Positions 2,904 through 14,370 of a stretch of DNA of 32,000 bases are shown piece by piece. The notes beneath the pieces are model-generated. The model did no database searches and was not told the origin of the DNA. It saw only the letters and a list, made by a program, of their open reading frames with translations. Made by a program: the position numbers and the translations under genes. The DNA comes from Edaphobacter aggregans (GTDB lineage Bacteria > Acidobacteriota > Terriglobia > Terriglobales > Acidobacteriaceae): positions 3,540,001 to 3,572,000 of the forward strand of contig NZ_RSDW01000001.1 of assembly GCF_003945235.1 (NCBI RefSeq), in the 5' to 3' direction. The stretch's first letter is position 1. Each line of letters opens with the position of its first letter.

Positions 2904-4400
2904 TTGCTCACTCCGGCCCCCGAACTCGCAACCTCCACCCTTCCCGCGCTCTGTGTCGACCTCGACGGCACTCTCGTTAAGTCGGATACGCTCGTCGACT
3001 CTACTCTCGCCCTCGCACGCCATCATCCTTCCGCACTCCTTCGTATCCCAGGCTGGCTCGCCCAGGGCAAAGCCGCACTCAAGCAGCACATCGCAGCTAC
3101 TGTTCAGTTAGACGTCGCCCACCTGCCTTACAACCGCGAACTTTTGCAATTTTTAGAGCGGCAGGGCTCCACGGGACGCCCCATCTACCTCGCCACCGCC
3201 GCCGACGGCGCTACCGCCCACCGCGTGGCGGATCACCTCGGCATCTTTGCCGGCGTCCTTGCCTCGGATGGAACCACTAATCTGTCTGGAAACAATAAGC
3301 TAGCAGCTTTCCGCGAACGCTTTGGCGACAACTTCGACTACATTGGCAACGCTCTTCCCGATCTTCCCCTCCTCCAGGCTTGCCACGAGCCGATGGTCGC
3401 CAATCCCACCGCTGGCCTCCGCGCCGCCCTCCGCCGTGCCCACATCACCCCCACCCGCACCTTCAGCGAGCAGGTCTCCCCCTTCAAAGCGTGGCCCAAA
3501 GCCATCCGCATCCACCAGTGGGCCAAGAACACCCTCATCTTTCTCCCCATGATTCTGGGACACGCCCTGTCCCCGGGCCTGATCGCAGCGGCCATTCTTG
3601 CCTTCTTCAGCTTCGGCCTCTGCGCCTCCGCCACCTATATCGTCAACGATCTCCTCGACATCGAAGCCGACCGCCACCACCCCCGCAAGCGCCGCCGTCC
3701 CTTCGCCTCAGGAGACCTCTCCGCCATCGCCGGCGTCCTCGTCATCGCCGTCTTCCTGGTCGCCTCCATCGCCCTTGCCCTCCTCGTTCCGCGAGCCGTC
3801 TCCACCTTTTCGCCCGGATTCTATCTCGCCCGGCCGCACAATTTCCTGGCGTGGCTGGCCTTCTACGCCGTGACTACTCTCGCCTACTCGCTCCGCTTTA
3901 AGCGCACAGTGCTGGTCGATGTCATCGTCCTTTCTGGTCTGTACACCGTGCGTATCATCGCCGGCTCCGCAGCCACGGGAGTTCCCGTCTCCACCTGGCT
4001 GGCCGGCTTCAGCATCTTCTTCTTCCTCTCGCTGGCGTTCGTCAAACGCTTCGCCGAGCTTGAAAATCTCCGCGAGCGCGGTGCAACCTCAGCCAAGGGC
4101 CGCGGCTACCACATCACCGACATCGAGCAGCTCCGCAGCTTCGGCTCCGCCAGCGGATACGCCTCCGTCGTCGTCCTCACCCTTTACATCTCCAACCTCA
4201 ACGCCGACGCCGGCCTGCTCTACAACCACATCCACCGTCTCTGGTTGCTGGTCCCCGTCCTTCTCCTCTGGCTAAGCCGCCTCTGGCTCCAGGCCTCCCG
4301 CGGCGAACTCAACGAAGACCCCGTCGTCTACGCCATCACTGACCGCCGCAGTCTCCTCATGGGCCTGCTAGTCGTGGCCATCGTCCTATCGGCCCTCTAA
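2904..4400 (+). CDS. HAD-like phosphatase domain fused to a UbiA-family polyprenyl-phosphate (phosphoribosyl)transferase-like membrane domain
   Basis: 498-aa ORF with a TTG start 6 nt after AAGGAAGGA. The N-terminal ~190 aa has HAD motif I (CVDLDGTLVKSD) and a HAD-IB-like layout. The C-terminal ~300 aa is multi-TM and carries the UbiA Asp-rich motif (YIVNDLLDIEADRHHPRKRRRPFASGDL), resembling the decaprenyl-phosphate phosphoribosyltransferase branch. Confidence 0.75.
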   Translation: MLTPAPELATSTLPALCVDLDGTLVKSDTLVDSTLALARHHPSALLRIPGWLAQGKAALKQHIAATVQLDVAHLPYNRELLQFLERQGSTGRPIYLATAADGATAHRVADHLGIFAGVLASDGTTNLSGNNKLAAFRERFGDNFDYIGNALPDLPLLQACHEPMVANPTAGLRAALRRAHITPTRTFSEQVSPFKAWPKAIRIHQWAKNTLIFLPMILGHALSPGLIAAAILAFFSFGLCASATYIVNDLLDIEADRHHPRKRRRPFASGDLSAIAGVLVIAVFLVASIALALLVPRAVSTFSPGFYLARPHNFLAWLAFYAVTTLAYSLRFKRTVLVDVIVLSGLYTVRIIAGSAATGVPVSTWLAGFSIFFFLSLAFVKRFAELENLRERGATSAKGRGYHITDIEQLRSFGSASGYASVVVLTLYISNLNADAGLLYNHIHRLWLLVPVLLLWLSRLWLQASRGELNEDPVVYAITDRRSLLMGLLVVAIVLSAL

Positions 4401-4464
4401 CAAGCCCTAATTTCCCATCACCTCCGCAGTTGTTCTTTCTAAGCCAGTACAAAAGATCGGGTGC

Positions 4465-4497
4465 CCCAATCATCGCAGTCTCATCGCGATGATTGGG
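4465..4497. repeat. Intergenic 12-bp-stem hairpin (REP-like element) between the UbiA fusion and pheS
   Basis: The arm cccaatcatcgc (4465-4476) pairs perfectly with gcgatgattggg (4486-4497) across a 9-nt loop. It is preceded by gggtgcc, a context typical of short dispersed hairpin repeats. It could also act as a terminator for the upstream gene, but there is no T-tract. Confidence 0.5.
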
Positions 4498-4585
4498 AAT
4501 GTAGAACCTTCCCCAACCAGCCTTCGCCGTTGCTCGTTCTCTCGGGCACACCCCACCCACCTCATTTATCCTGATCTTTACTCAC

Positions 4586-5701
4586 ATGAGCGACCACATC
4601 CCCCAACTCAACAGCCACGGCGAACCTGACCTGGAAGCCGCCTTCGCCACTCTCGCCGCAGAGGTCCGCACCGAAGCCGCCGCCCTCACTACCCCCGACG
4701 CGCAGGAAGCCTTCCGCCTCCACTGGCTGGGCCGCAAGCAAGGCCGCCTCAAGCTCATCAGCGACGCCTGGCTCAAGTCCGCCCCGGCTGAAGCCCGCAA
4801 GCCCCTCGGCATCCGCTTCAACCAGCTCAAGCAGCAGATCGAGCAAGCCCTCGAAGCCCCGCTAGCCACTGCAAGCACGGCAGCAGTGCAGGGAATTGAC
4901 GTCACTCTCCCCGGAGCCATCCGCACTCCCGGCATCCCCCACCCGCTCCTCAAGACCATGCAGGAGATCGTGCAGGTCTTCCACCACCTCGGCTACAGCA
5001 CCAACCTCGGCCCCCAGGTCGAAACCGACTTCTACAATTTCGAGGCCCTCAACTTCCCTCCGAACCACCCCGCACGCGACACCCAGGACACCCTGCAAAT
5101 CGCCCACCAGTCCTCCAAGCCATCACGCGACCGCCTGCTGATGCGCACCCACACCAGCCCCGTGCAGATCCGCACCATGGTCGCGCAGGCCCCGCCCATC
5201 CGCATCGTCATCCCCGGCAAAGTCCACCGCAACGACGCCGCCGATGCCACCCACTCCCCCATCTTCCATCAGGTCGAAGGCCTCTGCGTCGACACCAACA
5301 TCACCTTCTCCGACCTCAAGGGCACGCTCGACCACGCCATGAAGGCCCTCTTCGGCAGCGACGTCAAAACCCGCTTCTTCCCATCGTTCTTTCCCTTCAC
5401 CGAGCCCAGCGCCGACGTCCAGATCTCCTGTATCTTCTGCGGAGGCAAGGGCTGCCGCAAGTGCAAACACTCCGGCTGGATCGAGCTCCTCGGCTGCGGC
5501 ATGGTCGACCCCGCCGTCTTCGCTGCAGTCACCGAAGAACGCCGCAAGACCAACCCCGCCGACGACACCTACAATCCCGAGCGCATCACCGGCTTCGCCT
5601 TCGGCATGGGCGTCGAGCGCATCGCCATGATCCAGCACGGCATCTCCGACATAGGCCACTTCTACTCCGGAGACATGCGCTTCTTAGAGCAGTTCGCCTG
5701 A
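4586..5701 (+). CDS. pheS: Phenylalanine--tRNA ligase alpha subunit
   Basis: 371 aa with class II aaRS PheS motifs (FPPNHPARDTQDTL, HTSPVQIRTM, FFPFTEPSADV, GFAFGMGVERIAM) and the C-terminal GDMRFLEQFA. Confidence 0.95.
   Translation: MSDHIPQLNSHGEPDLEAAFATLAAEVRTEAAALTTPDAQEAFRLHWLGRKQGRLKLISDAWLKSAPAEARKPLGIRFNQLKQQIEQALEAPLATASTAAVQGIDVTLPGAIRTPGIPHPLLKTMQEIVQVFHHLGYSTNLGPQVETDFYNFEALNFPPNHPARDTQDTLQIAHQSSKPSRDRLLMRTHTSPVQIRTMVAQAPPIRIVIPGKVHRNDAADATHSPIFHQVEGLCVDTNITFSDLKGTLDHAMKALFGSDVKTRFFPSFFPFTEPSADVQISCIFCGGKGCRKCKHSGWIELLGCGMVDPAVFAAVTEERRKTNPADDTYNPERITGFAFGMGVERIAMIQHGISDIGHFYSGDMRFLEQFA
5636..5701 (+). repeat. Direct repeat copy 1: the functional last 66 nt of pheS
   Basis: cacggcatctccgacataggccacttctactccggagacatgcgcttcttagagcagttcgcctga. 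It matches 7738-7803 at 59/66 positions, and its last ~34 nt match 6473-6506. Confidence 0.85.
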
Positions 5702-5705
5702 AGCC

Positions 5706-5735
5706 GTTGTTCAGCGTCAAGTTGTTCAACGTCAA
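5706..5735. repeat. Tandem 15-nt direct repeat immediately after the pheS stop codon
   Basis: gttgttcagcgtcaa (5706-5720) is followed directly by gttgttcaacgtcaa (5721-5735), with 1 mismatch. Confidence 0.7.
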
Positions 5736-5787
5736 AAAGATAGCGCTTCAACATGCCTCCTGATATGCTCAGGGGGCATTTCCATTT

Positions 5788-6453
5788 TTGAGTTTATCCA
5801 GGGGTATTTGTTTGAGACTTGCAACTGTGTTTGCCTTGGTACTTATTGCACTATCTGCCCAATCTTTGCATGCTGATTTGATAGGCACCAGCGTCTCCGG
5901 TTCGCTCTATTACACGTACACCGGCCCCGCCCCAGCTTATGGCACTGTAGTTTCGTACAACTTGTACGACCCCTCATCCTATTCCAACGCTGTTCCGTCT
6001 ATTTACGGCAACTATGCGGGACCAAATAACATCACCATCGGATCTGCCACTGAATTCGGCTATGAAGACACGTCTTTGCTCATCATCACTTCAGACTTCA
6101 CGGATAGCGCTCTTACCATCACGGAAACCTGCCAATGGGCCTATGGCTGCGGAGTCTTCGGCGATTTATTCACGTTCACCGATCCTGCCTTCACAAATCT
6201 GACGCTTCTTTCCGACCCTTCGAACTTCATCGAATCCTATAGCCTCATAGGCGATACGATGACGATCCGGGCTGATTCTCCTACCTTGTACCTGACATCT
6301 CGGATTCTCTACGGAACAGATACTGCCGTATTCTCCATCGATCCCACTCCCTCAGTCCCCGAGCCAGGTTCACTCGTATTGCTATCCACCGGTGTCTTGG
6401 CAACACTAGGCTTCGCTCGTTGCAAAAAATCTCGCAAAAAAACTCAAGGATGA
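5788..6453 (+). CDS. PEP-CTERM sorting-domain secreted protein
   Basis: Signal peptide (LATVFALVLIALSAQSLHA). The C-terminus is PSVPEPGSLVLLSTGVLATLGFARCKKSRKK, i.e. a PEP motif, a TM helix and a basic tail. The TTG start at 5788 lies 11 nt after AGGGGG; TTG 5812 is an alternative start. Many codons end in A/T, unlike the flanking genes. Confidence 0.8.
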   Translation: MSLSRGICLRLATVFALVLIALSAQSLHADLIGTSVSGSLYYTYTGPAPAYGTVVSYNLYDPSSYSNAVPSIYGNYAGPNNITIGSATEFGYEDTSLLIITSDFTDSALTITETCQWAYGCGVFGDLFTFTDPAFTNLTLLSDPSNFIESYSLIGDTMTIRADSPTLYLTSRILYGTDTAVFSIDPTPSVPEPGSLVLLSTGVLATLGFARCKKSRKKTQG

Positions 6454-6472
6454 GCAGTATCGTCTAGGCTTT

Positions 6473-6506
6473 GAAGACAATGCGCTTCCTCGAACAATTC
6501 GCCTGA
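6473..6506 (+). repeat. Direct repeat copy 2: a short pheS 3'-end fragment
   Basis: gaagacaatgcgcttcctcgaacaattcgcctga. The atg cgc ttc ctc gaa caa ttc gcc tga portion reads MRFLEQFA*. Against 7770-7803 it differs by 3 substitutions and 1 inserted base. Confidence 0.7.
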
Positions 6507-6531
6507 TTGTCAGCAGCTTCAGGAATTGCTC

Positions 6532-7575
6532 TTAGCTGGCATGTACAAGTTGCCGCCGCATCGTCCGTCGAACCACATGTCCTCCAACAAGGATCAGCGG
6601 TTTTTCAATTGCCACATGCAGCAACGCCGGGACCGCGATCACTCCTGTTATGAGCACGGCAATACGGACCCACATTGGCGCGCCCGACATCGTGTGGAAC
6701 GCGAACCCCATCACAATCGTATGGCTTAGGTAGATTCCGTACGAGTGTTCCGCGATCCAATGCAACAGAGGCTGCAACACACCGCGCGAGACTTCTCGAG
6801 CGTTTGCATACAACAGGGCCAACAGCAGCGACACCACCCACGCACGCTGGAGCTTCACAGCCAGGTGCAGATTGTCGTGCGGTCCAAACAGTAAAATTGC
6901 GGCGGCGATCCCCATTGGCCATCCCCATGCCGGCAGCGTCCATCGCCAGCGTTTGCTCCGGATCACGTCGTACGCGACTATTCCCGATGTAAAGCACGGC
7001 GCATAGTGGAAAACGCTCAACCTCTCGCTTATCTCAGGCGTGATTAGCGCCAATACCACCGAGAGCGCCCATAATCCAATCGAAACATACCGGCGCTTAC
7101 CTCGTACTGCGAAGTAGAGCACTGGAAGCATCACGTACATCTGCACCTCAAGCGGCAAGCTCCACAGAACGCTCAGAATGTCCGGGCTGTAAGTCAGGTT
7201 CTGGGTCAACGTCAGGTTTGAAAGGTAAGCCTTCAGGCCGATCCAATGGTAGGTTTCCCCCGGATAGGCCGGAATCCTGAACATCACAATCAGCACCACA
7301 AACAAGATCGACAACGGATAGATTCTGAAGAACCGGCGGCACCAGAACCCCGTTACCAGCTCCCAGGAGCTCTGTGCGCTCGCCTGTAACCGCTCCAAAG
7401 AACCCATCAGCACAAAGCTGGTATGAACAAAAAAGATGACAACGCCGACGCGCCCGAGACTTCCAAAGCTTCGTATCCCGAATACATCCAACAAATGTGC
7501 GATAAAGACGCATAGTACGGCTGCCGCGCGCAGCATATCTAGATTAGGCGAGAGCGTCGCCTTCGGTGGTGGCAT
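6532..7575 (-). CDS. Acyltransferase family 3 (OafA/YrhL-type membrane O-acyltransferase)
   Basis: 347 aa and about 10 TM. The N-terminus NLDMLRAAAVLCVFIAHLLD...VVIFFVHTSFVLMGSLER is characteristic of acyltransferase_3 proteins. Confidence 0.8.
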   Translation of the reverse strand: MPPPKATLSPNLDMLRAAAVLCVFIAHLLDVFGIRSFGSLGRVGVVIFFVHTSFVLMGSLERLQASAQSSWELVTGFWCRRFFRIYPLSILFVVLIVMFRIPAYPGETYHWIGLKAYLSNLTLTQNLTYSPDILSVLWSLPLEVQMYVMLPVLYFAVRGKRRYVSIGLWALSVVLALITPEISERLSVFHYAPCFTSGIVAYDVIRSKRWRWTLPAWGWPMGIAAAILLFGPHDNLHLAVKLQRAWVVSLLLALLYANAREVSRGVLQPLLHWIAEHSYGIYLSHTIVMGFAFHTMSGAPMWVRIAVLITGVIAVPALLHVAIEKPLILVGGHVVRRTMRRQLVHAS

Positions 7576-7653
7576 GAAATTTCCTTAGATTAGTCACCTC
7601 AGAATATACCGGGACGTTCCGCCGCAGCCTACGACTAAAGCGGCAAGCCGCTG

Positions 7654-7740
7654 TCATCCGTCTAAAACAGGGGTCGATCGGGAGTAAAACTCAACCGGCC
7701 TGTTAAGGTCGGCGATAAAAGACAGCGAAACCGCGACCAC
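7654..7740 (-). pseudogene. C-terminal fragment (28 codons plus stop) of a third bestrophin-like/DUF4239-like paralog
   Basis: It reads ...VVAVSLSFIADLNRPVEFYSRSTPVLDG*. The full paralog at 8624-9373 has LVVAVSLAFIADLNSPRGGFIHTQP at the same place. The nucleotide similarity ends exactly at ccgcgaccac (7731-7740), where pheS homology begins. The 66-aa track ORF 7654..7854 is a chimera across this junction. Confidence 0.65.
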
Positions 7741-7803
7741 GGCATCTCCAATAGAGGTCACTTCTGCTCCGGAGACATGCGCTTCCTCGAGCAGTTCGCC
7801 TGA
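7738..7803 (+). pseudogene. Direct repeat copy 3: displaced or degenerate pheS 3' end
   Basis: cacggcatctccaatagaggtcacttctgctccggagacatgcgcttcctcgagcagttcgcctga, 59/66 identical to 5636-5701. It reads HGISNRGHFCSGDMRFLEQFA*. Its TGA lies 4 nt from the stop codon of the convergent gene at 7808. Confidence 0.8.
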
Positions 7804-7807
7804 GCCT

Positions 7808-8563
7808 CTAGTGCAGGCTGTCCCGCAAGCTCTGCAGGTTCTGTGGCTGCACACGAATTACGCCGCTGCGCGGACTATCGATATCCGCGATCAGAAAGAA
7901 CGCGATTGCAACCAGAAGCGGCAGCACGATCGCCAATTTGGGCTCAACGCGCCGGGCTTGAAATCCAAATAACACACAGCAGCAGATCGCAACTACAAAC
8001 AGCAGCATCCAGGCCGCCCCGGGAACCCGGTACCGCCACGCAGCTTCTGTATAACCCTGCGAGTTCAGTACGTCGTTCATTCCACCTACCGTCAGGGTCA
8101 CCACCGAAATCGGCTGCTGCTCCTTCACATGACCCGAAGCAGCAGTCCAGAGCTCACCCTGCACTCGCGCCGTATCTGCATTGACCCGCCGCAGATCATC
8201 GTCGCTTCGCGCCCCGTAGTGCTGAATCCGCAGGTCTAAATACTGCCGTAGAAGCTCACGCACCTGCGCTCCGTCCGCCTCGGGAAGCAAGTCCGCGCGA
8301 AGATACTCCGTTCCAATCGCGTTGGCCTCAGCCTCCTCATAATTCTTTCGCTGATCGTACCGGCCGACCGCCATCGAAAAGCTGAACCCGATCACCAGTC
8401 CAAGCAGCGTCAGCGCAGCGCCTAGAACCACATCGAAGTCTGGGCGCTCCTCCTCGGAGATGGACTTCCGTCGAAGGCGCAGCTGAGTCCCCAGCCAGTT
8501 CGCAAACCACAGAATCGCGAACGAAACAAAAAAAATCAGGACAGGATAATCCAAAAGCCTCAT
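7808..8563 (-). CDS. Bestrophin-like / DUF4239-like membrane protein, paralog A
   Basis: I chose the ATG at 8563 (MRLLDYPVLIFF...) because it is preceded by AGGAGG; the track ORF extends to 8590. It has one N-terminal TM, a second TM (VVLGAALTLLGLVIGFSFSM), a soluble helical middle and two C-terminal TMs. The family assignment is from memory of DUF4239 architecture and was not searched. Confidence 0.75.
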   Translation of the reverse strand: MRLLDYPVLIFFVSFAILWFANWLGTQLRLRRKSISEEERPDFDVVLGAALTLLGLVIGFSFSMAVGRYDQRKNYEEAEANAIGTEYLRADLLPEADGAQVRELLRQYLDLRIQHYGARSDDDLRRVNADTARVQGELWTAASGHVKEQQPISVVTLTVGGMNDVLNSQGYTEAAWRYRVPGAAWMLLFVVAICCCVLFGFQARRVEPKLAIVLPLLVAIAFFLIADIDSPRSGVIRVQPQNLQSLRDSLH

Positions 8564-8623
8564 GAAAAAAGCCTCCTGAGCACTCTTCAACCAACTGAGA
8601 ATAGTCCAGCGCGATCCCGCTGA

Positions 8624-9373
8624 CTACTGCAAGGTCCCCCGCAACCTCTCCAAATTTTTCGGCTGCGTATGAATAAACCCTCCCCGAGGGCTATTCAAAT
8701 CGGCAATAAATGCCAGTGACACCGCGACCACCAACGGCAGCACAATCGACAGCTTCCAGTCGGTACGTCTCGACCCATAGCCATACAAAACGTTGCAGCC
8801 CAGAGCAATCCCGAACATCAGAGCCCACGCGGCCACCGGAATGCGGTCCTCCCACACCTCCCGCGTCGCTCCCTCGGACTTAATCACATCGTTCACGCTG
8901 GCGACCGCAAGCGCCGCGACCGCAGTCGGCTGAGCCTGAGCCGGCTTACTCACAGCGGCCCAAAGCCCATGCTGCACCTGTGCCGTCTCCGCCGCAATTC
9001 TCTCTGTCTCCCTGTGCCCATTCACATAAAACTGAATCCGAAGATCCGTGTACTGACGCAGCAGATCGCGTATTCGAGCCGAATCTTCCTGAGGCACAAG
9101 CTCCGCTCGCAGATACGCCGTTTCAATCGCATTGGCCTCGGTCTCTTCATAGTCGCCGCGTAGCTCAAAGCGATTGATCGCCATCGAAAAGCTGAACCCG
9201 ATCACCAGCCCAAGCAGTGTCAGCGCCGCACCCAGAACGACATCGAAGTCCGGCCGCTCCTCCTCGCCGATACTCTTCCGGCGAACGCGCAGCCGAGCCC
9301 CCAACCAGTCCGCAAACCACAGCGCTGCGAATGAAACAAAAAAAATCAGGACAGGATAATCCAGGAGTTTCAT
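8624..9373 (-). CDS. Bestrophin-like / DUF4239-like membrane protein, paralog B
   Basis: 249 aa with the same architecture as paralog A. The first 65 residues are 58/65 identical to A; the rest is much more diverged. Confidence 0.75.
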   Translation of the reverse strand: MKLLDYPVLIFFVSFAALWFADWLGARLRVRRKSIGEEERPDFDVVLGAALTLLGLVIGFSFSMAINRFELRGDYEETEANAIETAYLRAELVPQEDSARIRDLLRQYTDLRIQFYVNGHRETERIAAETAQVQHGLWAAVSKPAQAQPTAVAALAVASVNDVIKSEGATREVWEDRIPVAAWALMFGIALGCNVLYGYGSRRTDWKLSIVLPLVVAVSLAFIADLNSPRGGFIHTQPKNLERLRGTLQ

Positions 9374-9440
9374 AGCAGCTCTCCCTCACACAGAAAAGCA
9401 GTGCCTTCGAAAGACACTGCCTTTCCGCCTTCGACTCCAG

Positions 9441-9797
9441 CTAAACGGGTTTCTTCTTCGGCCCATCCAGAAAACCAAACAGCAGATGCAGCAGTGCCAG
9501 CACCAGCGCGCCAAGAAATGCCGCCGTCCAGGTCGCTACGACAAAGCCCGGCACAAACACGCTCGAAAATTTCAGAATCACCGCATTGATGATCAGAAAG
9601 AACAGCCCAAACGTAAGAATCCCGAGCGGCAGCGTAATGATCTTCAAAAATAGCCCCAGCGTCGCATTCAGCAGCCCGATCACAATGACCGCAATTAAAG
9701 CCGACACAAAGCCACTGACCACAAAGCCCTGTACGAAATGCGAAACCACGAGCAGGGCCACAGCATTCAAAATCCAGTGCAGAAACAGACGAACCAT
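9441..9797 (-). CDS. Phage holin family IV / YvlD (DUF360)-type small 4-TM membrane protein
   Basis: 118 aa. LNAVALLVVSHFVQGF...ALIAVIVIGLLNATLGLFLKIITLPLGILTFGLFFLIINAVILKFSSVFVPGF closely follows the YvlD/Phage_holin_4_2 pattern. I preferred it over the overlapping 149-aa ORF 9370..9819. Confidence 0.85.
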   Translation of the reverse strand: MVRLFLHWILNAVALLVVSHFVQGFVVSGFVSALIAVIVIGLLNATLGLFLKIITLPLGILTFGLFFLIINAVILKFSSVFVPGFVVATWTAAFLGALVLALLHLLFGFLDGPKKKPV

Positions 9798-9913
9798 GGC
9801 TCGTTCCTTTCAGCCGCACAATTGAACACCCGGATTCGCCGTTAGCGTTTCCGCCACACGAGCATACCCCACCCAGCCCCGGCCCAGCATATTTTTCTCT
9901 TCCTGCTCGAAAC

Positions 9914-10405
9914 TTACTTCACCACGTCATGGTCGTAGCTGATCACCCGCGACACCTTCCAAGCCCCATCCTTGTACTGCCAAAGGTGAATGAACTTCGC
10001 CTCCCCCAGCACGTCATTCTGCACCCCGGGATGATGAAACCGATGCACGCCAATCTCCACGGCCCCATACCCCTTCAGCGGATAAACCTCCAGCGATCCC
10101 TTCACCAACTCTCGCGTCACCTTCCCGCAGATATTGTTCTTGATCGCAACCAGAAACGGCTGCTTCCCCACCATCAGCCCTGTCTTATCGTGATAAAACT
10201 CCAGATCGTCCACCACCAGCGAGCCCAGCTTATCGATATCGCAATTGTTGTAAGCATCGAAAAGCTGCGTATCCAGAGCCGAAATCGCACGCGTCAACTC
10301 CGCATCGCTCTTGATCGCCTCCAGCGCAGGAACAGCCTGAGCCTCCACCCGAACCAACGTCCCCGCCATCAAGCCCACCAGCACCAAAGCCGAAAACCTC
10401 TTCAT
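9914..10405 (-). CDS. Secreted NTF2-fold (SnoaL/DUF4440-like) protein
   Basis: I chose the ATG at 10405 (MKRFSALVLVGLMAGTLVRVEAQA, a signal peptide), which is preceded by GGAGGG. The body (LFDAYNNCDIDKLGSLVVDDLEFYHDKTG...WQYKDGAWKVSRVISYDH) looks like an NTF2-like fold. Confidence 0.65.
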   Translation of the reverse strand: MKRFSALVLVGLMAGTLVRVEAQAVPALEAIKSDAELTRAISALDTQLFDAYNNCDIDKLGSLVVDDLEFYHDKTGLMVGKQPFLVAIKNNICGKVTRELVKGSLEVYPLKGYGAVEIGVHRFHHPGVQNDVLGEAKFIHLWQYKDGAWKVSRVISYDHDVVK

Positions 10406-10503
10406 CGAACCCTCCGCGCTCAGAAAGTAAGCACCCTCCGCAATACGCAAGCATCTATAAGAATGTTCATCCGCATTAACCTCAAACCAGGAAACCGCAA
10501 CTC

Positions 10504-11079
10504 ATGGGCAAAAAATTCGAGCGCATCGAACCCGCTCACCTCGAATTCATCGAGCGTCAGCACATCTTCTTCAACGCCTCCGCCGCCCCCGAAGGCCGTG
10601 TCAACGTCTCGCCCCGCGACGCCGCCGCTCTCCGCATCCTCGACCCCAACACCGTCGTCTACCTCGATCGCACCGGCAGTGGCAACGAGACCGCCGCCCA
10701 CCTCCGCCTCAACCCTCGCCTCACCCTCATGTTCTGCGCCTTCGAAGGCTCCCCCATGATCCTTCGCCTCTACGGCCACGCCCGCATCCTGCCCCGCCAC
10801 AGCGACGAGTACGACACCCTCCTCGCCACCCACTTCAACAACACCGAATTCCCCGGCGCCCGCCAGATGCTCCTGCTCCACATCGACCTCGTCCAGACCT
10901 CCTGCGGCATGAGCGTCCCCTTCTTCGATTACGTCAGCGAACGCGACCAACTAGACCGCTGGGCCGAAGTCAAAGGAGAAGCCGCCCTAGAAGACTACCG
11001 CCGCCAGAAAAACACCCTCAGCATCGACGGCTACCCAACCGGCATGTTTGAAGAGATCAAAGAAACCACCGTCCCTTAA
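10504..11079 (+). CDS. Pyridoxamine 5'-phosphate oxidase (PNPOx)-like FMN-binding family protein
   Basis: 191 aa. FIERQHIFFNASAAPEGRVNVSPRD...VVYLDRTGSGNETAAHLRLNPRLTLMFCAFEGSPMILRLYG is the typical split-barrel PNPOx-like pattern. Confidence 0.7.
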   Translation: MGKKFERIEPAHLEFIERQHIFFNASAAPEGRVNVSPRDAAALRILDPNTVVYLDRTGSGNETAAHLRLNPRLTLMFCAFEGSPMILRLYGHARILPRHSDEYDTLLATHFNNTEFPGARQMLLLHIDLVQTSCGMSVPFFDYVSERDQLDRWAEVKGEAALEDYRRQKNTLSIDGYPTGMFEEIKETTVP

Positions 11080-11123
11080 AGCCGTTTCACTCGACAACCT
11101 TTTTGATTCGTCCGGCTTCTAGG

Positions 11124-11190
11124 TACCCCAAGGCTTCAGCCTTGGGTCTTTCAATACACCGAAGAAAAAGGCTTCAGCCCCTGGGGTATG
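11124..11190. repeat. Pair of short hairpin repeats built on the ggcttcagcc core
   Basis: cccaaggcttcagccttggg at 11127-11146 forms an 8-bp stem with a ttca loop. A second, related, inverted unit, aggcttcagcccctggggta, lies at about 11169-11188. The unit at 11125-11146 (taccccaaggcttcagccttgg) resembles the reverse complement of the second unit. Confidence 0.5.
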
Positions 11191-11208
11191 CCTTTACTAA
11201 ATTGCGCA

Positions 11209-11778
11209 TCATTTTCTACTAGAAGACTCATCCGACTTCGACAAACCCAACGTCATGATTTCGCTCCCGCCACTAAAGAGCGACCATCCCCCGCTATCTT
11301 CAGCCATCTCCACATAGGGAAACCTACGGTAGATCGCGGCAATAATCTCTTCCGCTTGCTCTTTGTTCACATGAGTCATGAGGCGGGTGGAACTCCAGCT
11401 GCCGAGTCGCGCATAAAGACCGCTTGGCTCATCTTCGCCACCCTCTCTATAGTCCAAACCCGAAATGCTCGACCATTGAAGACGTAAATTGCTGCTTGAG
11501 ATTCGACCAAGAGTACCAATGACCTCAATGCCCTCTTTCGTAATCAGTAGCTCTGCATGATCGTCACCAAGCCACCCGACAACGCCATGACCTATAGCAA
11601 CCACCAGCATGAGGAGGACAATCCAGCTTTGATTGCGCCAGAAGAGAAATGCCAGCCCCGCGATAACAAGAGCCTCCACAAGAAAATCAATCCAGCGCCT
11701 TTGTCTCGTGAACAAAACCTGCATTTCATCTTCTCGATCGAAGATCTCGAAACGAACGCTTGGCCCGAACCATTTCAT
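11209..11778 (-). CDS. Hypothetical 2-TM membrane protein (no family recognised)
   Basis: 189-aa ORF. It has two adjacent TMs (FLVEALVIAGLAFLFW, WIVLLMLVVAIGHGVVGWL) followed by a soluble domain. It is AT-richer than its neighbours and is divergent from pheT, 73 nt away. Confidence 0.6.
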   Translation of the reverse strand: MKWFGPSVRFEIFDREDEMQVLFTRQRRWIDFLVEALVIAGLAFLFWRNQSWIVLLMLVVAIGHGVVGWLGDDHAELLITKEGIEVIGTLGRISSSNLRLQWSSISGLDYREGGEDEPSGLYARLGSWSSTRLMTHVNKEQAEEIIAAIYRRFPYVEMAEDSGGWSLFSGGSEIMTLGLSKSDESSSRK

Positions 11779-11851
11779 GCAATGATCTTAGCTTTGCCGA
11801 ACCCCGTTTCAAGGAAAACAGGGCAAACATTTAGACTAGAAGCCGTCCATC

Positions 11852-14023
11852 ATGAAGATTCTCACCGCGTGGCTCCGCCACTACCTCCCCACCCTCTCCG
11901 TCACCGACCGGCAACTAGCCGACGACCTCACCCTGCGCGGTATCGCCGTCGAAGGCGTCCACGATCTCACGCCTGAATCTGAAAGACGACCTTCATACGC
12001 GTCTGGAGAGCTCAAGCGGCTACAAGAAAAATATGGATCCCTCTTCGAGATGGACATCACCACCAACCGTGTCGACGCCATGAACCACTACGGCATCGCG
12101 CGTGAAGCCGCCACCATCTACAACCTCCCGCTCGAGCACCTCAACACCAAGCTCCCCGTAGGCACCCTCGTCGACGGCCCATTCCCCATCCGCATCGCCC
12201 CCGACGCCAAAGGACTCTGCGGCCGTTTCACCGCGCAGGTTCTCCGTAACGTCACCATCGCCCCTAGCACCGGAAAAATCTCCGAATACTTCAACCTCCT
12301 CGGCCAGAAACAAATCTCGAACGCCGTCGACGCCAGCAACTACGTCCTCCTCGGCATGGGCCACCCCACCCACGCCTTCGACCTCGACAAGATCGAAGGA
12401 GGCATCGTCGTCCGCCTCGCCCACAAAGGCGAGAAGCTCAAGCTCCTCGACGGCACCGAGCGCACCCTCGAAGCCGACGACCTCGTAGTAGCCGACGAAA
12501 AGAAGGCCCTAGCCCTCGCCGGAGTCATGGGCGGCTGGGACTCCATGATTACCCCCGAAACCAAAAACATCCTCATCGAGGCCGCCTGGTTCGACCCGGC
12601 CACCGTCCGTCGCAGCTCCCGCCGCCATCTCCTCCACACCGACGCCTCCCACCGCTTCGAGCGCGGAGCCGACTTCAACGCCGCCCCCGTCGCCAACGCC
12701 CTCGTTGCGCAGCGCATCCTGCAAGCCGGCGGAAAGATCGAAGGCGAGCTCATCGACGTCATCGACCCCGACGTAGCCGCCCGTACCGCCAACCGTCCCA
12801 CCATCGAGCTCTCCGTAAAGCAGGTCCAGCGCCACCTCGGCAAAACCATCGACCCCGAAGGCATCACCGGCGAGATCGTCGCCCGCTACCTCTCCTCGCT
12901 GGGTTGCGAGCTCATCCTCCACGGACTCGACATCTACCGCACCAAACTCCCCTCCTGGCGCCTCGACCTCGAGCGCGAGATCGACCTCATCGAAGAAGTC
13001 GCCCGCGTCTACGGCTACAACCGCTTCGCCAACACCCTGCCCACCGCGCTCCCCGTCATCGCTCACCCCACGGCAGCCAAGGAAGCCGCCGTCCGCACGC
13101 GCCTCCTCGCCCTCGGCTTCAGCGAATCCATTTCTAGCAGCTTCGCCAGCCAGCAGGACAGCGACCTCTTCTACACCACGAAGCAGACAGGCCAGCAACC
13201 AGTCCCCATGGAGAACCCGCTCTCCGAAGAAGCCTCCCTCCTCCGTCCATCGCTCATCCCTGGTATGGCGACGATGCTCGCCCACAACCTCAACAGAGAC
13301 GTCCGCGAAGTCCGCCTCTTCGAACAGGGCCAGATCTTCACCGGCACGATCCCCGCCGACGCCTCCCACATCGCCGACGTCCACGAATCCCCTCAGCTCA
13401 CCCTCGGCCTCACCACCGCGAACCCGCAGACCATCGCGCCGCACATGGCCCAAGACGTCCCCTTCTTCGAGCTCAAGGGAGCCATCGAATCCCTCCTCTC
13501 CCTCTTCACCCTCCCCGGAGGCGCCGAGGCCGTCACCTTCACCCCCGAATCACCCGCCTGGCTCCAGCCAGGCCGCTCTGCCACCGCACTCCTGAACAAC
13601 CAACCCATAGCCCACTTCGGCGAACTGGCTCAAACACAGGCCCAGCACCGCAAACTCCGGCAGCCCGTCTATCTCGCCCAGGTCGACCTGGCCACCCTCT
13701 ACGATCTCTCCCTGCGCAAGATCACGGCCCACGACCTCTCCCGCTATCAAGCCGTCGAGCGCGACTTCTCCTTCGTCTTCCCCGACGCCGTCCAATGGCA
13801 CACCATCGCCTGCGCCATCCAGGCCCTCGCGATCCCCGAGCTACAAAGTCGCAAGCCCATCGAAGTCTGGCGCAATGAAAAGAAGTACCCCGGCGTCTAC
13901 TCCCTCCTGGTCCGCACCATCTTCCAATCGCTCGACCGCACCCTTCGAGACGAAGAGCTAGCGACCTGGTCCACCCAGATCATCGAGACCCTAACCAAAC
14001 TAGGCGGCACCCTCCGAGCCTGA
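11852..14023 (+). CDS. pheT: Phenylalanine--tRNA ligase beta subunit (short form, no OB-fold tRNA-binding domain)
   Basis: 723 aa. The N-terminus is the B1 domain (MKILTAWLRHYLP...). B3_4 motifs are present (NAVDASNYVLLGMGHPTHAFDLDKIEGGIVVR, LHTDASHRFERG), as are B5 and the C-terminal FDX-ACB-like region. Confidence 0.95.
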   Translation: MKILTAWLRHYLPTLSVTDRQLADDLTLRGIAVEGVHDLTPESERRPSYASGELKRLQEKYGSLFEMDITTNRVDAMNHYGIAREAATIYNLPLEHLNTKLPVGTLVDGPFPIRIAPDAKGLCGRFTAQVLRNVTIAPSTGKISEYFNLLGQKQISNAVDASNYVLLGMGHPTHAFDLDKIEGGIVVRLAHKGEKLKLLDGTERTLEADDLVVADEKKALALAGVMGGWDSMITPETKNILIEAAWFDPATVRRSSRRHLLHTDASHRFERGADFNAAPVANALVAQRILQAGGKIEGELIDVIDPDVAARTANRPTIELSVKQVQRHLGKTIDPEGITGEIVARYLSSLGCELILHGLDIYRTKLPSWRLDLEREIDLIEEVARVYGYNRFANTLPTALPVIAHPTAAKEAAVRTRLLALGFSESISSSFASQQDSDLFYTTKQTGQQPVPMENPLSEEASLLRPSLIPGMATMLAHNLNRDVREVRLFEQGQIFTGTIPADASHIADVHESPQLTLGLTTANPQTIAPHMAQDVPFFELKGAIESLLSLFTLPGGAEAVTFTPESPAWLQPGRSATALLNNQPIAHFGELAQTQAQHRKLRQPVYLAQVDLATLYDLSLRKITAHDLSRYQAVERDFSFVFPDAVQWHTIACAIQALAIPELQSRKPIEVWRNEKKYPGVYSLLVRTIFQSLDRTLRDEELATWSTQIIETLTKLGGTLRA

Positions 14024-14077: not shown

Positions 14078-14177
14078 TAGCTTGTCATCCCCGAAGGGGA
14101 CCTGCTGTCGCCGTTGCTGTTGTAGTGTAGTTGCTTGTCATTCTGAGCGAGGCGAAGAACCCCCGCATTTTGCTCGC
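14078..14177. repeat. Two tandem variants of the tgtcat(c/t)c...gaag(g/a)acc intergenic repeat family
   Basis: Unit 1 is cttgtcatccccgaaggggacctgctgtcgcc (14081-14112), containing a tcccc/gggga hairpin. Unit 2 is cttgtcattctgagcgaggcgaagaacccccgcattttgctcgc (14134-14177). The same family occurs at 17138-17196. Each unit is preceded by tgt/tgc-rich runs, which produce the spurious Cys-rich ORF 14046..14414. Confidence 0.65.
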
Positions 14178-14370
14178 AGCGCCACGAAAACTCCACGGCA
14201 GAGTCCCAAAAGTGCCATCCGCCAACCAGCTTTTCCACACTTCGCTCCATCAACCCACCACCAAAAACCACACGCTACACACCACTTCGCAACAAACCCG
14301 AACCCAGAAAGATACCCCAAAAAAATATCCACGGATTCACCCTCTATACTCTTCCACAGGAGTACAAGTA

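Follow-up and report, generated by a model that had tools for sequence, protein, structure and literature searches.

Three copies of the pheS 3' end in Edaphobacter aggregans, probable scars of recombination in a variable pheS-pheT gap

Results

The window, by which we mean the whole 32-kb stretch of Edaphobacter aggregans DNA that was analysed, carries a pheS gene whose orthologs at 80 Acidobacteriaceae loci share 67-89% amino acid identity. Its 3' end (c1) is followed by two cargo segments, A and B, and each of these runs into a further copy of the pheS end (c2 and c3) before the bestrophin-like gene Best1 is reached (Table 1).

Table 1. Features of the pheS-pheT region (coordinates are those of the window)
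Feature	Position	Strand	Remarks
pheS	4586..5701	+	Phenylalanyl-tRNA synthetase alpha subunit, functional; Pfam tRNA-synt_2d (E 3e-92) and Phe_tRNA-synt_N
Copy c1	5636..5701	+	pheS end currently used, final 66 nt; 59/66 identity with c3
Segment A	5702..6472	+	15-nt tandem repeat, terminator-like hairpin, PEP-CTERM protein gene
15-nt tandem repeat	5708-5737		In segment A
Terminator-like hairpin	5753-5779		In segment A, with a T-run in addition; terminator scan
PEP-CTERM protein gene	5788 or 5812 to 6453	+	Pfam PEP-CTERM
Copy c2	6473..6506 (27-nt core 6480-6506)	+	Displaced pheS end; 34 nt including 1-nt indel
Spacer	6507..6531	.	pheS end to acyltransferase 3' end; corresponds in alignment to the L166 and L168 pheS/AcylT3 spacer
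Acyl_transf_3	6532..7575	-	OafA/YrhL-type O-acyltransferase, main cargo of segment B; Pfam E 3e-29
Acyltransferase upstream region	7576..7696	-	Native
Bestrophin-like (Best2-type) remnant	7697..7740	-	Reads VVAVSLSFIADLNRP; internal piece, last ~20 codons missing
Copy c3	7738..7803	+	Former pheS end of 66 nt, ancestral, now displaced and decaying
Spacer GCCT	7804..7807	.	Ancestral pheS/Best1 junction; also in L174 and L082
Best1	7808..8563	-	Bestrophin-like (PF14023, Pfam E 4e-20), convergent to pheS; right border of the variable site
Best2	8624..9373	-	Bestrophin-like paralog, nearest relative of the remnant
pheT	11852..14023	+	Closes the variable pheS-pheT gap (5702-11851) on the far side

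The repetition of the last 66 nt of pheS as c3, first noticed in a sequence-only reading of this DNA, was confirmed; the translations are HGISDIGHFYSGDMRFLEQFA for c1 and HGISNRGHFCSGDMRFLEQFA for c3, each followed by the stop. Of the shorter copy reported in that reading, the 27-nt core of c2 stands (23/27 identity with c1, 25/27 with c3), but the full 34 nt align only with a 1-nt indel, as homology back to 6473 requires an inserted nucleotide (GAAGACA-A-TGCGC versus GGAGACATGCGC). Matches to the 27-mer with up to three mismatches are exactly the three copies, the number expected by chance from shuffles being 0.00. Alignment detected no homology between the copies outside the pheS-derived part on either side, which excludes a plain segmental duplication. 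The differences among the copies in the last eight codons are all synonymous, and the synonymous variant of each copy is the pheS end of some relative, in agreement with the proposal that each was once a real pheS end. The last 27 nt of c2 are the native pheS end of L166 except for the stop codon. None of the changes AAT, AGA, GGT and TGC in c3 recurs in the roughly 35 pheS ends compared. The use of ATA and TTA in c1 had been regarded as unusual, yet both codons occur in native pheS ends of relatives (TTA in L175 and L007; ATA in L007, L166, L002, L006 and L011); a TTA-type ending like that of c1 is found in the native pheS of L175, which is devoid of segment A, and c1 itself is identical in L081 and L082. 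It cannot be recognised as foreign DNA. In L168 and L178 the pheS terminus carries independent tandem duplications of 16 nt, a hint of a local tendency beyond what our best explanation accounts for.

Both segments had been judged AT-richer by eye. This holds for segment A, whose GC content of 0.49 is the lowest of any 771-nt stretch in the window (0.2th percentile), but not for segment B, which at 0.548 (10.6th percentile) does not differ from the genes that follow on the right (Best1 and Best2, 0.578; Holin4, 0.518). Only segment A is compositionally foreign; the entire pheS-pheT gap is AT-richer than core genes. Homologs of the segment A protein were found only in L081 (97% amino acid identity) and L082 (79%), at the same location, and the segment is not present in L173, L174, L171 or L175.

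The acyltransferase of segment B matches an NCBI protein of Edaphobacter aggregans at 100% identity. Orthologs with 74-81% amino acid identity lie convergent to pheS in L166/L167, L168 and L003, and a collection of 5.8 billion proteins contained no homolog above 81% outside this genome. About 50 nt of its upstream region (7597-7646) are 79-84% identical to the regions upstream of the acyltransferase genes of L166-L170. The gene fragment noticed earlier in segment B could be identified as the Best2-type remnant: it matches 8688-8731 at 34/44 nt and Best2 at 13/15 amino acids, a similarity reached by 0/300 shuffles. The remnant and c3 share CAC (7738-7740), a 3-nt microhomology, and this overlap is an illegitimate joint that forms the right junction of segment B. 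Taken in order, c2, the 25-nt spacer, the acyltransferase, its upstream region and the remnant are homologous to the native pheS/acyltransferase/bestrophin arrangement of L166, L168 and L003. As segment B is collinear with this native neighbourhood, it is a piece of the allele that a relative has at this locus.

Across 69 loci the pheS-pheT gap ranges from -4 to 6804 nt with variable cargo, the two genes overlapping in 20 of the 69 relatives; it is a gene-turnover hotspot in Acidobacteriaceae. Extra pheS ends or the triple repeat occur in 0/80 species-representative loci. Alleles from close relatives, recovered from metagenomes, form a series in which the predicted empty site and intermediates are both found. 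In L174 the full-length pheS ends ...CTCGAACAGTTCGCCTGA GCCT CTAGTGCAGGC against the homolog of the gene at 7808 (in short form ...TTCGCCTGA-GCCT-CTA); the spacer is identical to the 4 nt that separate c3 from the stop of the convergent gene, and with the Best1 stop it is the same as window 7801-7818, TGA-GCCT-CTA being identical. The nucleotide identity of L174 with the window is 89.6% in pheS and 91.3% in Best1. L173 shows the same empty-site arrangement with the spacer TGCCT, and an unbroken alignment of window 7738-11048 to L173 begins 66 nt before the end of the intact pheS there. The ancestral state in the E. aggregans clade is therefore, on the basis of L174 and L173, pheS convergent on Best1 across a 4-nt spacer, and the distal copy c3 is the ancestral pheS end, as had been suggested. 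In L082 segment A stands alone, followed by a 6-nt pheS remnant, GCCT and Best1, with no acyltransferase. L081 carries segment A, c2 and a different cargo gene, DinB_2 (its pheT homolog has the domains B3_4, B5, tRNA_synthFbeta and FDX-ACB). In L171 and L175 the order is pheS-(orf182)-DinB_2 before Best1. No allele with segment B alone was found among these relatives.

The window and L081 are 97-100% identical overall, with zero mismatches at 5624-6323, apart from a tract of 6-16% divergence from about 6345 to about 8700 that spans the swapped cargo and the whole of Best1. Within Best1 identity is 84-94%, returning to 99-100% from about 8700 on, which marks the right end of the swapped tract. 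These divergence profiles show that whole alleles are exchanged at this locus through active homologous recombination. The window and L081 share the left boundary of c2 exactly, whereas the tail of c2 in L081 and the sequence downstream of it match another native allele, of the L171 type. The shared boundary and the differing tails fit recombination into different alleles.

Discussion

The allele series, the junctions and the tracts of homologous recombination can be read directly from the sequences, and with both empty and intermediate alleles in existence they support successive additions behind pheS, the copies being junction scars. Based on these data we propose, with a probability of roughly 0.6, that the copies are scars of homology-anchored and illegitimate (or single-crossover) recombination in the variable pheS-pheT gap. 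In a first event, DNA of a relative would have entered from an allele in which pheS converges on an acyltransferase gene, with a Best2-type gene beyond it in the orientation of the acyltransferase. The donor pheS part would have recombined homologously with the resident pheS, while the donor end, lying within the bestrophin-like gene, would have joined illegitimately at CAC, 66 nt before the resident pheS stop; an equivalent route would be the entry of a circularised fragment through one crossover within the pheS end. The incoming pheS end would then have become the functional one, leaving the former 66 nt as c3. A second event of the same type may have added the AT-rich PEP-CTERM segment, with 34 nt of the preceding pheS end remaining as c2. 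This order of the two events is inferred, and so is the route, whether by homology-facilitated illegitimate recombination (HFIR) or by a single-crossover circle. Bounded by pheS including c1 on its left and by c2 on its right, segment A could subsequently move into any pheS allele by ordinary homologous recombination, the recipient retaining its own pheS tail and downstream genes. Such spread would account for its presence in three backgrounds, namely empty-type (L082), DinB_2 (L081) and acyltransferase (window). A dedicated recombinase is unnecessary in this scheme. Weighing against it, HFIR is rare in experiments, natural transformation is not known to be established for Acidobacteria, and neither an allele with segment B alone nor an acyltransferase closer than 81% was found elsewhere.

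Every junction falls within the final 66 nt of one gene, as site-specific recombination would also predict. Under the recombination-scar explanation this clustering must be put down to selection for an intact essential gene and to the end of conservation at the stop codon; as pheS is essential, only products in which an intact end had been restored would survive. The sequence-only reading had instead taken A and B for small integrative elements, either decayed or dependent on mobilisation in trans. Their attP would carry a surrogate pheS 3' end, and an integrase of the tyrosine or serine type encoded elsewhere would have inserted them serially at an attB in the pheS end, making c1-c3 att repeats. 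Tandem accretion of integrative conjugative elements (ICEs) and IMEs at gene 3' ends is familiar, and such elements would explain why direct repeats of the 3' end of a conserved housekeeping gene surround each segment and why the final 66 nt of pheS were used repeatedly, as well as the empty and intermediate sites, the foreign composition of segment A, and its single position and single c2 left boundary in three allele backgrounds. We nevertheless regard this origin as unlikely. Probing with one XerD and one resolvase sequence covered only the 32-kb window out of the 6.15-Mb genome and the retrieved flanks; no recombinase was found in the window, and a phmmer probe of 82 related loci (L001-L082) detected no integrase or other mobility gene within 10 kb of pheS. 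The copies of A or B that might have been expected beside a recombinase elsewhere did not turn up, neither segment having a copy in plasmids, phages or viral contigs, and the protein homologs are confined to this locus. Segment B consists of genes that are native beside pheS in relatives and stops within a truncated gene of host type, at a 3-nt microhomology, and the repeats are unequal in length (34 and 66 nt) with junction-specific boundaries. Finally, the recent identity patch shared with L081 begins in pheS upstream of the repeats and ends within A, limits that fit homologous recombination and not the transfer of a whole element.

The same structure, with the Best2-type remnant, CAC and c3, would also be produced by the mirror image of the first event, in which pheS-acyltransferase-Best2-type was the original state of the lineage and empty-type DNA (the last 66 nt of pheS, GCCT, Best1 and the sequence beyond) came in. 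Homology on the Best2/Holin4 side would have anchored this DNA, and its other end would have joined illegitimately within the resident Best2-type gene; c3 would then never have been the pheS end in this genome. The arrangement of pheS next to the acyltransferase is common across the family and could be the older state. However, none of the closest relatives (L081, L082, L171-L175) has the acyltransferase, and all carry the empty type or a derivative of it. Homologs of the acyltransferase elsewhere do not exceed the 81% limit given above, and L082 retains a pheS remnant and GCCT beside Best1 with no acyltransferase at all. These observations make this polarity improbable. Duplication of the pheS end in situ, segmental or in tandem, followed by divergence and involving no foreign DNA, has a precedent in the 16-nt units of L168 and L178 but is effectively refuted by the allele series and by homology that stops exactly at the pheS-derived part, A and B being moreover unrelated to each other, A missing from empty-site relatives and of GC 0.49, and B collinear with another allele type.

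Several known systems resemble the pheS locus in part. Both HFIR (de Vries and Wackernagel 2002; Prudhomme et al. 2002; Meier and Wackernagel 2003, as cited in PMC5361080) and the single crossover of a circle with a partial gene end duplicate the gene end (E. coli lacZ study, PMC3240628). The pheS locus shares with them an anchor in a conserved gene, a few nucleotides of microhomology (CAC) on the other side and the gain of foreign DNA with no dedicated recombinase, and the single-crossover variant likewise duplicates part of the gene end, 109-950 bp in PMC3240628. Unlike in those experiments, the process is here deduced from natural alleles, less sequence is duplicated (34 and 66 nt), and two events are stacked.

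Orphan 3' ends are left by sequential displacement at Rhs, CDI and T6SS effector loci (Kirchberger et al. 2017, PMC5361080), where displacement of C-termini with orphan ends and immunity genes has been described (Jackson et al. 2009, as cited there). As at pheS, each incoming module lodges in the 3' part of a conserved gene and displaces the earlier end downstream, which builds an ordered array, and whole arrays then travel between strains by homologous recombination. The displaced ends in those systems, however, encode differing toxin domains that are kept with immunity genes under selection, whereas pheS is a housekeeping tRNA synthetase gene with an unchanged protein end, its displaced ends are short non-coding scars and the cargo consists of unrelated surface or accessory genes.

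A protein-gene target had been called unusual for integrative elements, which is overstated: ICEs and IMEs with tyrosine integrases use the conserved 3' ends of the housekeeping genes rplL, rpsI, rpmG, guaA and lysS, the last being the lysyl-tRNA synthetase gene (PMC4701971). Like these elements, the inserted DNA at pheS is flanked by direct repeats of an exact essential-gene 3' end and the functional end is regenerated; their repeats are typically 12-54 bp, and a tRNA-synthetase gene is among their targets. In contrast, the pheS segments have no integrase, excisionase, relaxase or other element backbone, measure 0.8 and 1.2 kb with one gene apiece, and include one that consists of neighbouring genes of the host family and has one of its boundaries inside a truncated gene of host type.

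Where hotspots between core genes lack recognisable mobile elements, diversification proceeds through homologous recombination in the core genes on either side (Oliveira et al. 2017, PMC5635113). The pheS-pheT interval agrees with them in its span, from overlapping to 6.8 kb, in its changing cargo, in that no mobility genes were found and in the mosaic identity tracts across pheS and Best1. Clean double homologous recombination, however, duplicates no gene ends, and the pheS scars record the rarer illegitimate steps by which new alleles form.

Results

Three copies of the pheS end and their origin

Searching the window with the 27-mer at up to three mismatches returned exactly three sites, the functional end of pheS (c1), a middle copy (c2) and a distal copy (c3), with a shuffle expectation of 0.00. 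In the alignment the c2 core is identical to c1 at 23 of 27 positions and to c3 at 25 of 27. These direct repeats, each carrying the pheS 3' end, surround segment A (c1 and c2) and segment B (c2 and c3), as the sequence-only reading had reported. Since there are exactly three sites and similarity among the copies ends at the copy borders, the repeats are confirmed and are not the product of a plain segmental duplication; homology reaching far past the pheS end, as such a duplication would leave, was not seen.

Features of the pheS-pheT region (window coordinates)
Feature	Position	Strand	Remarks
pheS	4586-5701	+	Pfam tRNA-synt_2d, E 3e-92
c1	5636-5701	+	final 66 nt of functional pheS
Segment A	5702-6472
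PEP-CTERM protein gene	5788/5812-6453	+	inside segment A
c2	6480-6506 (27-nt core)	+	34 nt when a 1-nt indel is permitted
Segment B	6507-7737
Acyl_transf_3 O-acyltransferase gene (AcylT3)	6532-7575	-	inside segment B
c3	7738-7803	+	59/66 identity to c1
Best1, bestrophin-like	7808-8563	-
Best2, bestrophin-like	8624-9373	-
Holin_4_2 family gene	9441-9797	-
DUF4440 gene	9914-10450	-
PNPOx gene	10504-11079	+
ORF without assigned family	11209-11778	-
pheT	11852-14023	+

Each synonymous variant of the three copies occurs as the functional pheS end of some relative (pheS-region loci of relatives carry L numbers): the c1 type, TTA GAG CA(G/A), in L175 and L007; the c2 type, CTC GAA CAA, in L166, L017 and L025; the c3 type, CTC GAG CAG, in L168, L014 and others. 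This bears out the impression that each copy was once a real pheS end. The suggestion that the codons of c1 mark a foreign origin had to be given up, as ATA and TTA are present in native pheS ends of relatives. The c3-specific AAT, AGA, GGT and TGC are unique among ~35 pheS ends, which fits decay, as had been proposed for this copy. All five nucleotide changes specific to c3 fall in its first 32 nt and none in its last 34 nt (p ~0.03 if uniform), the change-free part being the exact extent common to c2; the clustering could stem from conversion between copies or from a crossover that came later.

Composition of the two segments

Both segments had been described as AT-richer. This stands for segment A, whose GC of 0.49 is the lowest among equal-sized stretches of the 32-kb window, and fails for segment B, which at 0.548 lies at the 10.6th percentile and is not distinguishable from the genes on its right. 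The pheS-pheT gap (5702-11851) as a whole has a GC of 0.548 versus 0.63-0.65 in pheS, pheT and UbiA, and acyltransferase orthologs in other genomes have a GC below that of their own pheS. Only segment A looks compositionally foreign.

Straight after the pheS stop, segment A has two tandem 15-nt units, GTTGTTCAGCGTCAA / GTTGTTCAACGTCAA (5708-5737), and 3' of them a strong terminator-like hairpin of 11 pairs with a T-run (5753-5779), so that the pheS terminator would be provided by the inserted segment.

Empty, intermediate and alternative alleles in close relatives

Metagenomic contigs of the same clade were reached from PEP-CTERM protein and Best1 homologs, and close alleles were obtained through homolog searches and contig look-ups; the contigs are ~88-97% identical to the window at the nucleotide level, varying by stretch. 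The PEP-CTERM protein has homologs at no other locus, and these are all in the same clade. Exact-protein look-ups gave no record for the window PheS and PEP-CTERM ORF and, for Holin4, only the L081 contig and truncated contigs. A metagenome scan with Best1 yielded, among the matches listed, only distant homologs (at most 65% aa) and no close alleles.

Alleles of the pheS end in the same clade
Locus	Arrangement	Remarks
L174	empty site: full pheS ends ...CTCGAACAGTTCGCCTGA GCCT CTAGTGCAGGC	spacer and Best1 stop as window 7801-7818
L173	empty site, spacer TGCCT	window 7738-11048 aligns contiguously from the last 66 nt of intact L173 pheS
L175	pheS-DinB_2 / Best1
L171	pheS end-orf182-DinB_2 / Best1
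L082	pheS[c1]-segment A-GCCTGA-GCCT-Best1	segment A only; 6-nt pheS-end remnant and GCCT spacer
L081	pheS[c1]-segment A-c2-orf182 remnants-DinB_2 / Best1	without acyltransferase, without c3

The empty site that the sequence-only reading had predicted, a c3-type end abutting the homolog of the gene at 7808, is present in L174 and L173. The one-segment intermediates that it had also predicted were recovered as L082, with segment A only, and as L081, the closest relative (~97-100% identity in the flanks), with segment A, c2 and other cargo. Assembly collapse across repeats was considered for L082 and rejected, as this locus is without the repeat core that a collapse would keep. The empty site and the allele series support successive additions at the pheS end, with the distal copy as the ancestral end that was displaced.

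The pheS-pheT gap across the family

A PheS scan of species-representative genomes gave 80 Acidobacteriaceae loci, and neither a peptide motif nor a nucleotide self-search showed a second pheS end in any of them. Across these and 88 later loci (L083-L170), extra pheS-end copies were found only in the L081 contig, apart from chance 13-14-mers. Among 69 loci, pheS and pheT overlap (ATGA) in 20, and the size of the gap varies between -4 and 6804 nt, its cargo comprising bestrophin-like, holin_4_2, DUF4440, PNPOx, AAA_16 and acyltransferase genes; in L002, L005 and L025 a bestrophin-like gene abuts the pheS end. Over the 69 loci the gap thus has the variable content between core genes that is expected of a hotspot of horizontal gene transfer free of mobile elements.

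Several alleles have features of their own. L003 (Acidobacteriaceae bacterium KBS 89) carries a second acyltransferase-like ORF of 383 aa (11107-12258), whose start overlaps the pheS stop and which precedes the ortholog of the window acyltransferase, giving two acyltransferase genes in one allele. In L168 a 16-nt unit of the pheS terminus, CAGTTCGCATAACGCC, is repeated ~4 times after the pheS stop (~3905-3975, minus strand, which is the pheS orientation), ahead of the convergent acyltransferase gene. A second terminal duplication in the family, independent of that in L168, is found in L178, L179 and L180, where a tandem duplication of 16 nt gives pheS the terminus ...GAACAGTTCGCCTAA C GAACAGTTCGCCTGA (L178 reverse complement ~2630-2830). 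There ~180 nt separate pheS from the Best1 stop and contain a GC-rich, REP- or MITE-like hairpin (GAGACGCGCGCTTTTTGCGCGTC...). Compared with the window PheS (371 aa), the PheS proteins of L178 and L179 (396-427 aa called) have ~26 aa inserted in their N-terminal region.

Segment B resembles another allele of the same locus

AcylT3 orthologs (74-81% aa) are frequent among the Acidobacteriaceae, where they are located at the pheS locus itself; the window protein is 100% identical to an NCBI Edaphobacter aggregans protein. In L166 and L167 pheS is followed after 31 nt by AcylT3, Holin4 and DUF4440, all convergent with it; in L168 by convergent AcylT3, Best and Holin4; and in L003 the acyltransferase adjoins a bestrophin-like gene. 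The last 27 nt of c2 are the native pheS end of L166 except for the stop codon, alignment with the L166 and L168 junctions covers both the 25-nt spacer and the 3' end of AcylT3, and ~50 nt upstream of the window AcylT3 match the upstream regions of its orthologs. Directly left of c3 lies a 44-nt Best2-type remnant (VVAVSLSFIADLNRP; 34/44 nt match, a score reached by 0 of 300 shuffles), which overlaps c3 by CAC at 7738-7740. An origin of this remnant from a bestrophin gene of the L168/L003 type was rejected, the remnant being Best2-type.

The shared order and the alignments with native loci show that segment B is one continuous piece of a different allele of this locus. It consists of a pheS end, the acyltransferase and the start of the neighbouring bestrophin-type gene, and is joined illegitimately to the resident pheS, 66 nt ahead of its stop. 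Its collinearity with the native pheS neighbourhood of L166, L168 and L003 speaks against the element cargo that it had been taken for.

Homologous recombination at the locus

The window and L081 are in general 97-100% identical. Identity is 84-94% from ~6345 to ~8700, a stretch that begins in the 3' part of the PEP-CTERM gene and takes in c2, the swapped cargo and the whole of Best1, and is 99-100% again from ~8700 on. Window 5624-6323, which holds c1 and most of segment A and its PEP-CTERM gene, matches L081 ~9798-10497 over 700 nt without a mismatch and is bordered on both sides by 6-11 differences per 100 nt; it is a homologous-recombination patch of very recent date. Within pheS, patches of 86-93% identity are found, and sliding identity against 30 relatives gave no clear donor signal for a mosaic tract inside the gene. 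This mosaic indicates that whole alleles and patches are swapped by homologous recombination, and such signs in flanking genes are a further property of hotspots free of mobile elements.

The left boundary of c2 (GCTTTGAAGACA/ATGCGC) is the same in the window and L081; the c2 tail and the sequence downstream differ between them, matching different native alleles. This pattern fits recombination of segment A, lying between pheS on its left and the 34-nt c2 on its right, into different pheS alleles, each recipient keeping its own pheS tail and downstream genes.

At 4401-4549, in the UbiA-pheS intergenic region, ~136 nt are missing from L081; they include a hairpin CCAATCATCGC...GCGATGATTGG. The alignment with L081 is indel-rich at 11981-12130, where pheT encodes the N-terminal part of its product, and at 14081-14211, shortly past the end of that gene. 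Window 4516-4561 resembles 9828-9877 in the Holin4-DUF4440 spacer, both with GCA(C/T)ACCCCACCCA, and may represent a small repeated element or a common regulatory motif.

Search for mobility genes and for copies elsewhere

The absence of a recombinase gene noted by the sequence-only reading was upheld. Pfam analysis of window ORFs of at least 150 aa judged plausible genes found no recombinase families in the 32 kb, housekeeping or accessory families only. A phmmer search with XerD and resolvase probes, of limited sensitivity, gave no match in the window nor, for L001-L082, in the 10 kb around pheS on either side. No integrase was among the top 25 Pfam families for 85 gap ORFs, a survey that a divergent integrase could escape. 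A XerD-like ORF in L117 was set aside as not near a pheS. Segments A and B have no match in plasmids or phages and their proteins no relatives in viral contigs; homologs are at this locus only.

Discussion

Based on our data, a mechanism using host recombination only is the best supported explanation of the pheS-end structure. Pairing at pheS as an anchor, followed by an illegitimate joint at the other end, would amount to homology-facilitated illegitimate recombination (HFIR). An equivalent route would be integration, by a single crossover, of a circularised piece of DNA that bears a pheS end, and a single-crossover circle carrying a gene end is known to duplicate part of that end (PMC3240628). 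Either route places one junction in a homologous anchor, and pheS indeed lies left of each insertion, the incoming ends c1 and c2 being bona fide pheS-end variants of relatives. For segment B the other junction has microhomology (CAC, 7738-7740), and the inserted piece is contiguous, being collinear with the neighbourhood of the anchor in L166, L168 and L003. That only end-restoring products are seen would follow from selection for an intact, essential pheS. Which of the two events came first is inferred, as is whether the B event imported the acyltransferase block or the Best1 block.

Integrative elements bringing a surrogate gene end, as the sequence-only reading had it, would leave direct repeats with the target 3' end and an empty attB in relatives, and both are found here (the empty site in L174 and L173). 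They are not supported, as segment B is native-locus DNA and no integrase, of the element itself or serving it, was found in the window or the pheS flanks of L001-L082; nor does the same element occur independently of its neighbourhood in plasmids, phages or viral contigs. That a site-specific mechanism operated in trans is, in our estimate, improbable. Its target would not be exotic: integrative and conjugative elements (ICEs) use 3' ends of housekeeping genes, lysS included (PMC4701971), and the remark that a protein-gene target is unusual goes too far. We consider it very doubtful that Acidobacteriaceae have a cassette system, integrase-less or served in trans, with the conserved pheS terminus as its portable recombination site. 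In such a system single-gene cargo flanked by pheS-end copies would be captured and stacked behind pheS, much as cassettes are at integron attI, and its activity would also have left the 16-nt duplications of L168 and L178.

Under host recombination, the locus offers a natural record of accessory genes stacked behind an essential gene without mobile-element machinery, with empty, intermediate and alternative alleles recovered. Rare illegitimate steps that make new hotspot alleles leave displaced gene-end scars, and the scar then serves as a second homology arm through which the new gene spreads into other alleles by ordinary homologous recombination, a concrete mechanism for hotspots without mobile elements. 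For annotation, direct repeats of a gene 3' end around AT-rich cargo do not by themselves signal an integrase-type island. The cargo genes, which encode a PEP-CTERM protein, an O-acyltransferase and a DinB_2 protein, vary among strains and probably have to do with the surface or with stress; their functional consequence is ordinary.

The pheS-end structure is a real, lineage-specific and well-resolved recombination footprint, a variation on known processes rather than an element of a new kind. In its ordered array of displaced pheS ends it is comparable to T6SS and Rhs loci, for which sequential displacement has been described (PMC5361080), and the pheS-pheT gap is a setting like that of hotspots without mobile elements, which diversify via recombination in flanking core genes (PMC5635113).
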